A DNA stretch of 64,000 nt from a phage. The translations under genes and the position numbers were made by a program. Every line of letters starts with the position of its first letter. The stretch's first letter is position 1. Below are positions 6,448 to 29,610 of this stretch, in pieces. The notes under the pieces were generated by a model. The model saw only the letters and a program-made list of their open reading frames with translations, was not told where the DNA came from and made no database searches. The stretch lies in the sequence record OZ346222.1; one strand, given 5' to 3'.

Positions 6448-6753
6448 GAAGGTGTTCGTCGTATTATTTATTACCATAAATAACATTGTGGCTTCATAGA
6501 GTAATCTATGTCGAATAACCTCTTTAACTGCGGGAAGCCTAAACCTTATGGCAAGGTAATCCGCAACGAAGCGCTCAAAAGAGCGAACGCTCAGAGGCCA
6601 TTCCGAAAGGAAGTAGACCAGCAAGTGCGGTCGAAATGGGAGGATTCCTGTGGTTGCTTATCATAGGAATATGAGATGGTCCGATCCTACGTGAAAACGT
6701 ATGGCTATGCACGTAATGGTGCGGGGTAGCTTAACGACCTACCTGAACTATTG
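6448..6753 (+). other. putative group I self-splicing intron (about 306 nt, no ORF) in DNA polymerase gene
   Basis: Four in-frame stops between two same-frame polymerase ORFs; P-like CTGCGGGAAG (6527-6537), Q-like AATCCGCAACG (6558-6568), R-like GTAGACCAGCAAG (6613-6625), S-like ATGAGATGGTCCGA (6671-6684) with R/S covariation; exon UACGAU (6442-6447) can pair with intron GUCGUA (6458-6463) giving U.G at splice site; G at 6753. Confidence 0.5.
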
Positions 6754-15042: not shown

Positions 15043-15071
15043 TACTTGAAAATCCCTGGCATATCAAGTGT

Positions 15072-15110
15072 AAGGAGGATTTCTAAAATGGATTTCCTCC
15101 TTTTGATATT
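15072..15110 (+). terminator. rho-independent terminator
   Basis: AAGGAGGA ... TCCTCCTT hairpin followed by T-rich run. Confidence 0.5.
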
Positions 15111-15355
15111 TCACCGGGCCAGATATTTTAAAATTCTTAGAAAATCAGAAAATGGATCGAAAACTAAAATGGATTTTTCAAGACAGGCACGATAAGATGT
15201 GCTGCTCATTCTATCGTTCGCACCGTACTTTAAGTCACTATTCCAGATTTTTCCGCACATACTCTCACCCTTCTACCAGAACTTTCCCAGCTTACCTCTG
15301 ACCTTTTATAACAATAAGTCCATTATTATCAGAAAGTTTCGGCACATCTCTTTCG

Positions 15356-15550
15356 GTACTCGATCTGTTTTTCATTTCAAAGACCTGATTTTCTGAAAAT
15401 TTTTCTCGATAAATTTCTTAGTACTCGATCTGTTTTTCATTTCAAAGACCTGATTTTCTGAAAATTTTTCTCGATAAATTTCTTAGTACTCGATCTGTTT
15501 TTCGTTTTCTGAATCGGATTTTCTGGAAATCGTTCCAGCTCTCGACCTGA
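15356..15550 (+). repeat. tandem direct repeat, about 65-bp unit, 2 perfect copies plus 1 degenerate
   Basis: GTACTCGATCTGTTTTTCATTTCAAAGACCTGATTTTCTGAAAATTTTTCTCGATAAATTTCTTA repeated head-to-tail; within a 1.1-kb ORF-poor island. Confidence 0.8.
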
Positions 15551-15744
15551 AATTTTTGGGGACGAAATCGATTTTTCGTTTTCAGAAATGGATTTTTAAA
15601 ATTTCTATATGGGAATATTTTATGGGATACTGTTTTATAGGAAATTGTTACGGAGGGTAATTAGCATGCTAATTAAATTTATTAAATGCGAGGAGTTCTC
15701 ATTTAGAATTTTGAATGATAATCATTCTCGTTTGCAGAATAACG

Positions 15745-15915
15745 GGCAGGCCCGGTGATTGTCTCCCGGCCCCTACTGCCCCGGCTTGTTATTATAGTAT
15801 CACACAGGACAAAGAAAGCAAGGATTTTTTGCATAAATTTTTAAATGATAATGATAACCGTTCTCATTTTATGCAGCGCCCATCCCCGGTGGTTGTCTCC
15901 CCCGTCACCGGTGCC
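15745..15915 (+). repeat. GC-rich dispersed repeat pair (GGCAGGCCnGGTGATTGTCTCCC-like)
   Basis: Two related copies about 150 bp apart, each preceded by GATAAT ... TGCAG; inverted copy at 25520-25545. Confidence 0.5.
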
Positions 15916-16123
15916 TGCCGTCCTTTCGATAGGTATATCGTGCCACCTGGCGGGGCCGCTGTCAACACTTTTCAAAAAATTTTTCTAACCTGATGCGCTA
16001 ACCGCTGCAACCTGGCGGGGTCAGCCTGGCAGGACCTAACTGACCGGGTAGGAGAGAATGAAGGCTTGTAAACCTGGTGGGCCTATGCTACAGGATAGGT
16101 AACAATTGAAGAGGAGGTACAAA

Positions 16124-16297
16124 AATGAAAGGTAATATGATCCCCCTAGAAAATGTAGCTATTAATGACGCTGAGGCTATCGCCCTGGTTGAAAAGGCTA
16201 TGGCGGGAGCGTTGGAACATAAAGAAGAGTACGAAAAATGGTGGTTAACCTGGCGGGGGCGGCAGGTGGATTCTATCATAAAAATAATTTAAAATAG
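16124..16297 (+). CDS. hypothetical small protein (about 57 aa)
   Basis: ATG 5 nt after GAGGAGGT; below ORF-track threshold; hand translated. Confidence 0.35.
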
Positions 16298-16300
16298 TCG

Positions 16301-16328
16301 TTGACAACAAGGTTAATCATGGTATTAT
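16301..16328 (+). promoter_or_regulatory. sigma70-type promoter
   Basis: TTGACA, 16-bp spacer, TATTAT. Confidence 0.5.
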
Positions 16329-23132: not shown

Positions 23133-23187
23133 ACCTGGCGGGGCCGAAAAGGCCCCCAATTATGAAAATAAAGAGAGGCAAATCATC

Positions 23188-25437: not shown

Positions 25438-25572
25438 ATAAAAAGTGTTTTGGTACTGATTTTGGGGTTGACTTGTTCGGCCCCTTTTGCTATTCTTATT
25501 AAACGGGCGGCACTTGGGAACAGGGGGAGACAATCACCAGGCCTGCCTGTCATATAAGAACTATAAAAACCG

Positions 25573-26860: not shown

Positions 26861-27477
26861 TCTGCTCTTCCCCCTACCATAAACGGCCCTACCTGGCAAG
26901 TGGAATAATTGACGAGCCATCAATCCCACACACTGTACAAATATACATGTAAAATAACTATTGCATAACCTTTCATTGTGTGGTAGCGGTGCTATTTTTT
27001 ACCTGTTTTCCTTCCAAAATTGCACGTAATGCAGCTATTGCACAAAATTTAACCTGATGCACATCTCCAATATCCTGTCAACAACTAAAAATCTTTATAA
27101 GTCATACACTTACACAGCATCGAAAGCGTGTTCTACGCGAAAAATCGAGTATAACTATAGCCGCCAGATCTCAGAATTCACGTACGCACGCCATTCTATA
27201 GCCTGCAAAGTATTTATTCCAACCACAGAATAACGGAATAGTCAATACCTGAATAAAATAATTATTCGTTTAAACTGCATAACATAAATCAGCTCAGGTG
27301 TCAACATTTTTCGTAAACAGTCTGAAATTGTCACTGTGAGTTATCATAAACAGAGAAATCTTTAGTCGTATAATGTTTACTGTACGTTACTATACTGACT
27401 GGAATCATTAGATGACTAATAGAAAGATAAGAAATAATTAACAATACAATTATTTTACCTGTAACAATAAGACAACT

Positions 27478-27726
27478 ATGCAAACGAATGGCATGGCGCG
27501 ACGGAGTCGCGACATAATATAAAAGCAGTAACCATCACCCCCGTGATGGTTTGTCTGCAATCTATTAATCAGATCATAGTTGCCTTGTATTCAGTTAATC
27601 ATGACATAATAAGCAAGGCAACTATAGATCTGCTAATAGTTGCCCTGCTTTTATATTATGTCATATATTATTAACTTGTTAATTGTTAACTTGCTAATTG
27701 TTTTCATGCAAACGAATGTCATGGCT
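27478..27726. repeat. palindrome-rich module flanked by 21-bp direct repeats
   Basis: ATGCAAACGAATG(G/T)CATGGC at 27478 and 27706; perfect 18-bp inverted repeat GACATAATATAAAAGCAG / CTGCTTTTATATTATGTC (27510/27645); 12-bp inverted repeat CATAGTTGCCTTG / CAAGGCAACTATG; several short hairpins. Confidence 0.75.
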
Positions 27727-27734
27727 TATCCTAT

Positions 27735-27805
27735 CTGTGTAAACAGTTAAGGTGTAAACTATCCAGGCGTAAACAGTCTATGCGGGAACAATCTATACGT
27801 GAACA
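27735..27805. repeat. iteron-like array of GT(A/G)AACAG octamers
   Basis: GTAAACAG / GTAAACTA / GTAAACAG / GTGAACAG spaced 10-20 bp; further copies near 27313, 28078, 28790. Confidence 0.6.
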
Positions 27806-28357
27806 GTGAAACATGAAATAATAACAGTCGTTATTGTGTCGAAAGTGTATAAGGTGTCAGACAAGTTTTTCTCCTCTTTGTCAAGTGCTGCATGAAAAAT
27901 TTACAAGCTTGTATGGTAGCATTTTTGCGGCCCTGTTTACATTCAGCGATGTATGTATAATCCTTGTTGTGTGGGCGTTTAGACGTCTAGACGGTCAGAA
28001 GTCTGCAGGTTAATACCTAATCTATCGGCTGCTAACTATATCCCACACAAATAGTAAGAAATATAATTGTTATGTGCGTAAACAGTAACTCATGTTATCA
28101 ATCCCTGTATGTATCGCCAGTGGTGCGCATAATGGGTATTATGTTAAATTGCCCGTAATGATAACTATTCTCACAATGATAGGTATTCTCATTCACTCCC
28201 ACAAGATAGGTTGCAAATGTTGTGCCACTGTGTGAACGGCCTAACCTATTAATTTGCCTCACTGCCTCGATATTTGAGAATTGTTATAAGAATGAGAAGT
28301 ATTCCCATTTCGTCCGCCTGGCAGCACTCCAGTCGCTACCGCTCATGACAGGGCAGA

Positions 28358-29610
28358 ACTAGACCCTCTTCAGATATTTCTGGCTGACTCTTCAGGTCTG
28401 TGTGGGAAAAGCCAACCTCTCCGGCGGCGGGGAGGGGGTCAATTAAAAAAAATTACGTGGTGCATGAAGCGCTCTTCAGGTAAGGCATGTGTTATGGGAT
28501 GAAACCCTCTTCAGGCAATGATATTTGTGGGTGTGATATTTGCTGGAAAGCCAGATATGACGGGACTCCTGGCGGGGCAGGGGTAGTACAGACAGGGAAA
28601 ATATGGGGGATGTAGTTGGGGAAATTGATCAGACAGGTAGAGTATGGAATATGTTACAAGTATGTTAAATAGGGAGGATGAATATCTGCAGGATTTGTGT
28701 GTAAAATCAAAGACTTAAGTGGTGTTGTGGTATTTTCTATAAATAATTCAAGTTTAATAGGTAATATTTGTCTCTATCCACTTTGTGTGGTAAACAGATT
28801 CAGATGAAATTGGTTTACAAGTGTATACATAATATACAAATTAAAGATACAAGAAACCCCCCTCCCCCTTCGGCTACCATTCACCTTTTCCTCTGACTGG
28901 TACTTAAACACTTATTCAGACTCTTCAGGTTATCACCCATATATCATATGGCAGTGACTGGTGTCCTCCGGCCCCTCTTTCGTCACCCGTCCGCTTCGCC
29001 ATGCTAATGCCATAGCCAATGGTTCGGTTGTTCACTCTGTTCACTCAGGTGTATCTCCATACCCCTTCAAACCGAAGAGAACAGAAAACCCGAATTACTC
29101 GGTAAAAGAAAAGAGAAGAACTTAATTTTATCAGGATAGGCAAGAATGTCAAGGCATGACTGCTCACTAAACAAGCAAACAGTCATGTGTGGAAGGTAAG
29201 TGATTGTGGTGGTGGGAAATTTAGTTGAAAGATGTGTTATAGGTGCGCTTCCAGCACTTTGGCCGGGCAGCTAATTGTGTGTCAGTCCAGCGGTTCATCC
29301 TCTACTTCACTGAAATCAATGTTCATGGTCTCCTCCCAACCATCGATCTCAGCACAAGAGTGGAGTTCTTTAGGGTTTACTCCCAAAGCCTCAGCAACAG
29401 AGTCTATATTTAACACCTCTGGCAGGTATGATTCATCGAATTCAAGGTAAATCAGGCCACGAGTGTTGTCAGCTCCACCAAATATCTCTATCTTCATGAA
29501 ATCTCCTCTGGAAATGAGAGTGTGAACAGGGTTTTATACGTTCTAATGCACAGGAATTATACACGTTTGCCTCTTCAGGCCATGCTTTAGCATGAGGAAC
29601 CTGTGTGGGC
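28358..29610. repeat. dispersed CTCTTCAG(G) motifs, often followed by TGTGTGGG
   Basis: Six copies on the same strand (about 28358, 28388, 28465, 28505, 28918, 29567) within a G/T-rich non-coding stretch. Confidence 0.6.
29282..29497 (-). CDS. hypothetical acidic protein (71 aa)
   Basis: Last gene of leftward block; begins MKIEI like several paralogs. Confidence 0.45.
   Translation of the reverse strand: MKIEIFGGADNTRGLIYLEFDESYLPEVLNIDSVAEALGVNPKELHSCAEIDGWEETMNIDFSEVEDEPLD

Follow-up and report, generated by a model that had tools for sequence, protein, structure and literature searches.

A conserved multipartite non-coding element of rV5-like phages with origin-like architecture, predicted minus-strand promoters and Fur-operator-type palindromes

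In the replication origins of phages T7 and T4 (T7 primary origin, T4 ori(uvsY) and ori(34)), an AT-rich unwinding element lies downstream of one or more promoters; in iteron origins (lambda ori, P1 oriR, plasmid oriV) at least three direct repeats of 17-22 bp lie beside an AT-rich region, in single copy and in non-coding DNA. Here we analyze a locus that resembles both types, found at positions 15043-16123 (the island) of a 64-kb window, meaning the whole 64,000-nucleotide (nt) stretch under study, which comes from an rV5-like Escherichia coli phage (Vequintavirus, myoviruses with genomes of ~137 kb). The island proves to be a genuine cis-element, non-coding, conserved and multipartite, for which small open reading frames (ORFs) have been annotated to date. 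Its repeat arrays flank or adjoin an AT-rich segment of low stability, with Fur-type palindromes and two predicted tandem minus-strand promoters to the right of that segment. We tentatively read it, as the foremost of several possible accounts, as a transcription-activated, Fur-gated, origin-like control site, in which the promoters, Fur binding and initiation are all predicted.

The likeness to known origins is partial. Unlike those of T7 and T4, the putative promoters of the island are of the host sigma-70 type, the AT-rich segment lies between iterated repeats and Fur sites, skew gives no signal, and initiation is a prediction. Unlike iterons, the repeated units are ~65 bp long and composite, and they have no adjacent initiator gene, DnaA boxes or GATC cluster. 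Literature searches retrieved no paper describing the island, and no transcriptome, origin-mapping or Fur-box report for these phages.

A search with the 1,081 bases of the island found 122 phage records that are 80-93% identical to it, almost all from Vequintavirus. In rV5 (NC_011041), which encodes a T7-like DNA polymerase and a primase-helicase, the counterpart lies on the opposite strand at ~116.6-117.7 kb, within a long early transcription unit, and is annotated as ORF198 and ORF199. A sequence-only reading of the window had seen no convincing gene here, and this is borne out by an alignment of the window phage with 13 Vequintavirus relatives (14 sequences), used for the conservation and ORF tests, in which no ORF of the island is conserved in frame with third-position bias. 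That the island encodes small proteins, as annotated in rV5 and several other GenBank records, is very unlikely. The frame equivalent to ORF198 (15715-15993) is open in 10 of the 14 Vequintaviruses; however, it is open only because the DNA is near-invariant, the three codon positions have 16/18/21 variable columns, and it is interrupted in L018, L020 and L013 (3/13 relatives). The remaining ORFs of the island (15199-15396 and 15609-15758) contain stops in most of the 13 relatives, the sets of small ORFs differ by annotator, with some records annotating none, and no comparable open ORF exists in other genera. A scan for tRNA and tmRNA genes found none.

Two parts of the island (15453-15601 and 15662-15960) have an identity of 0.92-0.98 among the 14 Vequintaviruses, as compared to 0.82-0.89 for the flanking coding sequence. 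Sensitive BLAST searches recovered 15666-15830 at 71-88% in Phapecoctavirus, Seunavirus, Certrevirus, Mydovirus and Henunavirus, nearly always in unannotated gaps or beneath short hypothetical ORFs, and scans of IMG/VR returned 5 and 2 loci. The order of modules is common to the six genera (Vequinta-, Seuna-, Certre-, Mydo-, Henuna- and Phapecoctavirus); in the loci outside Vequintavirus it reads, from left to right:

First, GATATTTG, two to four copies
Second, GAAATGGTTTTC-type boxes, two or three copies
Third, a lineage-specific spacer
Fourth, three iterated units of 60-75 bp, core CTCGATC...TTTTC...ATCGTATTYTC/GGATTTTC...GAAAAAATTTTT
Fifth, one to four palindromes, AATGAGAATnATTCTCATT
Sixth, the near-invariant CAGAATRRCGGGCAssyCCGGTGATTGTCTC
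Seventh, a second GC-rich block
Eighth, the promoter of the next gene

The island is a single-copy element conserved across Vequintavirinae and Phapecoctavirus, most likely a cis-acting control region. It is among the few DNA segments still alignable between these two groups, and this marks it as a core cis-element hidden by spurious small ORFs. In the window phage, and in the predicted third module outside the island, its parts are as follows:

15073-15112, plus strand: predicted intrinsic terminator for the early genes that lie upstream, with stem AAGGAGGA (15073-15080) / TCCTCCTT (15096-15103), tail TTGATATTT
15104-15180, no strand: conserved box cluster, GATATTT twice (15105, 15122), GAAAAY four times, AAATGGATTT (15167)
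15186-15350, no strand: variable C-rich spacer, identity 0.66-0.77, small indels of 1-2 nt, GC skew about -0.43
15356-15600, no strand: iterated units U1 (15356-15420), U2 (15421-15485), U3 (15486-15550) and a degenerate U4 (to ~15600)
15587-15690, no strand: AT-rich low-stability segment, GC 0.29, palindrome AATTAGCATGCTAATT at 15661-15676
15688-15730, no strand: Fur-operator-type palindromes, a degenerate box 0 (~15688-15706) and box 1 (7-1-7 core 15716-15730; 19-mer 15711-15729)
15711-15740, plus strand: candidate promoter TTGAAT-18-CAGAAT, 8/12, weak, overlapped by Fur box 1
15741-15790, minus strand: predicted hairpin element A, outer helix AAUAAC/GUUAUU plus GGGCAG/CUGCCC, inner CCGG/CCGG, loop GAGACAAUCA
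15794-15846, minus strand: predicted promoter P1(-), extended -10 TGaTACTAT (plus coordinates 15794-15802), -35 TTGCTT (15816-15821), AT-rich UP-like stretch to ~15846
15847-15866, no strand: Fur-operator-type box 2, GATAATGATAACCGTTCTC
15868-15930, minus strand: predicted hairpin element B, paralogue of A, helix CCGGUG/CACCGG, loop with GGGAGACAACC; fold z = -1.9
15938-15990, minus strand: predicted promoter P2(-), -10 CACGAT (15938-15943), -35 TTGACA (15961-15966), UP-like GAAAAATTTTTTGAAAAG (15967-15990)
15991-16123, no strand: variable GC-rich tail that includes small hairpins and another ACCTGGCGGGG copy (16010-16020), followed by the Shine-Dalgarno sequence of ORF 16125
25469-25551, plus strand: predicted third promoter and hairpin module, TTGACT-17-TATTCT, then hairpin ACGGGCGG...GGGAGACAAUCACCAGG...CCUGCCUGU

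The iterated units carry the core CTCGATC-N2-TTTTTC ... GATTTTCTG ... AAAATTTTTC, which is confined to the island both in the window and in the 98% of the rV5 genome that was scanned. They had been described as three head-to-tail 65-bp copies at 15356-15550. This holds for U1 and U2, which are 100% identical, and less well for U3, at 68%, and it leaves out the degenerate fourth unit; Tandem Repeats Finder reports a period of 65, 2.3 copies and 98% matches over 15356-15507. Since all 13 aligned relatives have one unit fewer than the window phage, the extra perfect unit appears to be a recent (slippage) duplication. Every other genus examined has three equivalent units. Each perfect unit also includes an exact TCGATAAATT (15406-15415 and 15471-15480; one further copy in 64 kb), an H-NS-type sequence that corresponds to the published high-affinity H-NS nucleation motif.

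A gain of one unit recalls PhiTE, an rV5-like relative that escapes ToxIN when selection favours expansion of a non-coding tandem repeat, pseudo-ToxI, whose copy number varies by isolate (Blower et al. 2012, PMC3475682). By this precedent the 65-bp repeat would be a decoy RNA mimicking a type III antitoxin, and the perfect unit that the window phage has over any of its 13 relatives would fit. However, the locus, the unit length and the sequence all differ: the Certrevirus pseudo-ToxI locus adjoins tRNA-Tyr and NAD-salvage genes and is not syntenic with the island, the unit is 65 nt and not 36, and no ToxI-like sequence was found in 21 island and other loci. Moreover, the units share short motifs only, within a phage and between genera, and the array is conserved at the motif level across genera, which fits protein-binding DNA better than a toxin-matched RNA. 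Given this lack of synteny and of similarity, we rejected antitoxin mimicry, which we consider extremely unlikely. As a side observation, ToxI-like 36-nt repeats occur in 215 phage records, mostly of Klebsiella phages, and in Certrevirus CB7 they adjoin tRNA-Tyr (L022 3501-3564); antitoxin-mimic repeats thus look far more widespread than the single PhiTE case.

To the left of the spacer, the box types are GATATTT and AAATGGATTTT, and the short-repeat arrays run in both orientations, including AAATGGATTTT/GAAAAT. The box cluster at 15104-15180 has a mean pairwise identity of 0.90-0.98 among the 14 Vequintaviruses, likewise above that of the flanking coding sequence. The sequence-only reading had listed AAAT(G/C)GAT(T)TTT boxes across the island, and in their exact form these are specific: AAATGGATTT occurs at 15086, 15167 and 15586 and nowhere else in 64 kb (expected 0.1), and rV5 likewise has three exact copies in the island and elsewhere a single variant, AAATGGTTTT. 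The variants at 15151 and 15565 are present as well, but at one mismatch the count in the window is at chance. The terminator placed at 15072 was recovered as a hairpin with a T-rich tail; its loop of 15 nt, which contains the first AAATGGATTT box, explains why a consensus scan missed it. Relatives read AAGGGGGA, an A to G change in the 5' arm, with pairing retained as G.U only in the plus-strand RNA.

The variable spacer is bracketed by inverted repeats, made up of the left boxes on one side and the units on the other. Such a layout would also be expected of a pac site for headful packaging, in which opposed arrays of small-terminase sites flank a variable cleavage region, as in SPP1 or P1 pac. 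Circular permutation has been reported for rV5-like phages (PMC3475682), and a few records begin in or beside the island: phiWec189 at its position 1 (window ~15869), Salmonella phage R7, which carries a feature named attL, at position 69, and ETEC-TG at position 319. Such starts could mark a physical end, or could result from assemblies that broke at repeats. Most records start elsewhere, however, and assembly breaks could account for the small excess of nearby starts; in rV5 the island maps ~55 kb away from the gene for the large terminase (117 kb versus 58-61 kb), GATC is not enriched, and a pac site would leave the promoters and the Fur sites unexplained. We consider packaging an improbable function for the island.

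By nearest-neighbour free energy, only one 100-bp stretch of the 64 kb is less stable than the segment adjoining the units (15587-15686). Two features of an iteron origin, at least three direct repeats at a single genomic site (unique in the scanned part of rV5) and an adjacent low-stability unwinding element, are present. So is the arrangement of a promoter-driven origin, as the predicted P2(-) and P1(-) point leftward into the AT-rich and repeat region.

These promoters were found in the GC-rich part of the island. The sequence-only reading had noted a two-copy repeat there, and its core CCCGGTGRTTGTCTCCC stands at 15751-15767 and 15885-15901 (94%), within a larger duplicated module with a spacing of 134-136 nt. 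A third copy, GGGAGACAATCACCrG at 25525-25540, lies on the plus strand directly behind TTGACT-17-TATTCT, and because it sits behind its own promoter on that strand we read modules A and B on the minus strand. The third module (GGGAGACAAUCACC hairpin) lies between two early genes, just upstream of promoter P168 of the rV5 authors; the hairpin element has exactly 3 copies in the scanned part of rV5, the third at 108193. We therefore interpret the GC-rich repeats as paralogous modules, each with a predicted minus-strand promoter and a hairpin.

Variation among the Vequintaviruses spares the key positions of these promoters. In P1(-), TTGCTT-16-TGaTACTAT, only the n of TGn varies among Vequintaviruses. 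P2(-), TTGACA-17-CACGAT, has the -10 variants CACGAT, CACAAT, CAAAAT and CATAAT, with A2 and T6 always kept. In 11 of 11 non-Vequintavirus loci scanned, sigma-70-type minus-strand promoters are predicted at +86 to +89 and +241 to +254 from the anchor; the hexamers vary between loci (TTGCAA/TTGATC/TTGACC and others; TATATT/TATTAT/GATAAT and others), the position is fixed, and each has an AT-rich UP-like sequence upstream. A sigma-54 reading of TTGCA was considered from sequence and dropped.

All copies of the element fold as a two-tier hairpin that begins at the predicted start site and presents GAGACAAUCA in the loop, and the outer helix differs compensatorily between lineages (AUAGCG/CGCUAU, AUGGCG/CGUCAU, AAUAAC/GUUAUU). 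Conserved stem-loops at or near a start site, here behind three predicted promoters, are also found in HK022 put, lambda nut boxB and 5'-terminal stabilizer hairpins. The likeness is one of layout, with no sequence similarity known to put or boxB, and two of the three phage copies face no gene.

The second repeat picked out earlier, ACCTGGCGGGG, has exact copies at 15945 and 16010 and further ones at 16248 and 23133, with 5 matches at up to one mismatch (0.35 expected), all on the plus strand; one copy (15945-15955) lies in the spacer of P2(-). The motif CCTGGCGGGG occurs five times (15945, 16010, 16248, 23133 and 28567), always on the plus strand. In rV5 it also has 5 copies with the same strand bias, all in the early unit. 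The copy at 23133 leads into a GGGGCC-GAAAA-GGCCCC hairpin right after a stop codon.

The palindromes between the AT-rich segment and the modules resemble the Fur operators of E. coli (fhuA, ryhB, iucA type; 19-bp GATAATGATAATCATTATC / 7-1-7 TGATAATnATTATCA). With 0-2 mismatches to 7-1-7, the phage boxes match or better both host sites. Box 1 (15716-15730) has 1 mismatch to the 7-1-7 motif TGAKAATNATTMTCA. The core of box 2 (15852-15866) has 2, and its 19-mer (15847-15865), with 3 mismatches to the 19-bp Fur consensus, is the sole such match in 64 kb (expected 0.01). Positions 15718-15733 are identical to the promoter of fhuA in E. coli K-12 over 16/16 nt, and the phiWec186 box has 14 nt in common with the operator region upstream of ryhB. 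Both fhuA and ryhB are Fur-repressed. In 10 related loci, the density of 7-1-7 matches is 13 per kb within 200 bp to the left of the anchor, as compared to 0.04 per kb in the rest of these loci, with 1-4 boxes of 0-1 mismatches phased at -19/-48/-77/-115. The best Fur-motif matches in the window and in rV5 are confined to the island and to a large non-coding region described below. We therefore classify the palindromes as Fur-operator-type sites, with Fur binding predicted.

The Fur-box module had no match in 5,426 E. coli genomes by BLAST, and therefore is not a recent capture of a host promoter. The only related report found, on temperate lambdoid phages, describes Fur boxes that precede sitABCD (PMC6969025). 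Unlike the E. coli operators, the sites described here are predicted ones in the non-coding DNA of a virulent phage, are phased in arrays in other genera (29-nt spacing), and in the window lie downstream of the minus-strand starts, not clearly over a strong promoter. With respect to the minus-strand promoters, which are the better supported, the boxes stand at +60 to +80 or at -59 to -77. Box 1 also overlaps the weak plus-strand candidate TTGAAT-18-CAGAAT, which is present in most genera but is inseparable from the palindrome itself, and whose -10 lacks A2 in Mydovirus and L013. An ArgR-box reading of the palindrome was considered from sequence and dropped.

Under the origin-like reading, host RNA polymerase would start at P2(-) and P1(-), cross the Fur sites and enter the easily melted segment. 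The transcript, or the opening that it causes, would let the phage T7-type DNA polymerase and primase-helicase begin replication, on the model of the T7 primary origin and of the promoter-plus-unwinding-element origins of T4. The iterated repeats would bind some phage or host protein, and Fe-Fur at the palindromes would gate leftward transcription by host iron status. The sequence-only reading had suggested an origin or a regulatory or non-coding RNA locus. In its broad form this holds, as the region is non-coding, under strong constraint at the nucleotide level and endowed with features of both kinds. We add that the modules combine a predicted minus-strand promoter with a hairpin, that the AT-rich palindromes are of the Fur type and that the architecture is conserved in the subfamily. 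The function remains a prediction, as do all the promoters and any transcription or replication here.

A number of results weigh against an origin at this site. We know of no origin that has Fur sites as a component. Copy 3 of the promoter and hairpin module lies in an ordinary intergenic region, and the module is therefore not origin-specific. The hairpin folds have mostly non-significant z-scores, the G.U evidence on strand is mixed, and the modelled structural evidence for the hairpins is weak. There is no DnaA box in the island, GATC has 4 sites as compared to ~6 expected, and no initiator gene adjoins it, the flanking genes having no Pfam match. At 15-16 kb the cumulative GC skew has no inflection, and its peak lies at 28-30 kb. 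Since phage skew largely follows transcription, the absent switch is weak evidence; the rV5 authors report that skew changes only at switches of transcription direction (PMC3606486).

A competing origin candidate lies in the same window. A box labelled non-coding on the rV5 map (Kropinski et al. 2013, PMC3606486), rV5 104013-106618, corresponds to window ~26950-29230 and is separate from the island. It contains GTAAACAG seven times, CTCTTCAG five times, with one copy reading CGCTCTTCA, boxA-like, and TGATATTTG twice, in addition to four Fur-type boxes (28159, 28177, 28275 and 28293). Both the lowest duplex stability in the window and the maximum of the cumulative GC skew fall within it. Fur-type boxes, TGATATTTG and CCTGGCGGGG are in common with the island, and a local similarity search between the two regions found short common motifs only. 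Because of its more classical iterons (GTAAACAG seven times) and its least stable DNA, this region is at least as good an origin candidate as the island, and it is possibly the main origin or terminus.

The main rival to the origin-like reading is that the island is a Fur-gated locus of non-coding or antisense transcription with no role in replication. In one version the minus-strand modules would yield non-coding or antisense RNAs against early genes; in the other, a plus-strand promoter under Fur box 1 would yield a small RNA. In either case the RNAs would tune early genes or host iron physiology, and the repeats would be binding sites of regulators. The conservation of the predicted promoters and 5' hairpins fits such a locus, Fur-type operators are by nature transcription-control sites, copy 3 is an ordinary promoter-leader device, and the iron-dependent and anaerobic ribonucleotide reductases of the phage provide a rationale for iron sensing. 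The second GC block of the other genera, which differs from that of Vequintavirus, holds a helix that covaries (GC to AU, 4 sequences) and, downstream on the plus strand, a strand-specific, terminator-like hairpin of 12 bp, three of whose pairs are G.U and which runs into a pyrimidine/U-rich tail; some plus-strand transcription is therefore also possible.

Searches for a structured RNA speak against this rival: Rfam 15 gave no match at gathering score in the window (best permissive E-value in the island 0.32) or in 7 related loci, RNAalifold returned no convincing consensus structure for element A on the minus strand, and a MAFFT alignment of all element copies was not structural enough for a covariance model. 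The window Fur boxes lie ~+60 to +80 downstream of the minus-strand starts and not over the promoters, and the weak plus-strand -10 is lost in module 2, Mydovirus and L013. Moreover, a transcription locus leaves unexplained the more than 10 two-orientation short repeats and the low-stability segment at a single genome site. On balance we regard it as possible but unlikely. The remaining probability belongs to functions outside these five readings.

It is conceivable, if doubtful, that virulent rV5-like and phAPEC8-like phages have wired host Fur into a conserved non-coding locus, with iron gating either leftward transcription into the origin-like element or the production of phage non-coding RNA. 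If true, the lytic programme would be subject to an iron checkpoint that phages of Escherichia, Erwinia and Pectobacterium alike have retained. Functional Fur sites would mean that a strictly lytic phage of enterobacteria reads the iron status of its host. These phages act in the gut, where iron is scarce enough to be limiting, and rV5-like phages are broad-host-range therapy candidates. On the origin-like reading, minus-strand transcripts should have 5' ends near 15787 and 15931, Fur should bind two defined sites, and loss of the repeats should have an effect.

At its right end the island becomes variable: the GC-rich tail has an identity of 0.69-0.80, and ~60 nt (~16035-16095) are deleted in L020 and L021. 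The ORF that follows (16125-16292, 55 amino acids, strong Shine-Dalgarno sequence) is intact in 8 of the 14 Vequintaviruses and frameshifted in 6, rV5 among them, so that its status as a gene is doubtful or the gene is decaying. Should it be no gene at all, the island would extend as far as the promoter at 16301. In Seuna-, Mydo- and Phapecoctavirus, the right end has a small minus-strand ORF with its own promoter (L004 2817-3008; L025 1826-2011), which is absent from Vequintavirus. The GAP31 copy matches DUF7170 (PF23776, E = 1.9e-24), the only informative result of the Pfam scans of flanking proteins, and the phiWec186 ORF has no match.

Among the matching records, 16-17 named 'Campylobacter phage' are ~90% identical to E. 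coli Vequintaviruses over the island, and their host labels look doubtful. Elsewhere in the window, 6468-6703 is a group I intron (Rfam RF00028, 64.7 bits, E = 4e-14), and since the T7-like DNA polymerase gene of rV5 is split (ORF225/ORF228), the intron probably interrupts that gene.

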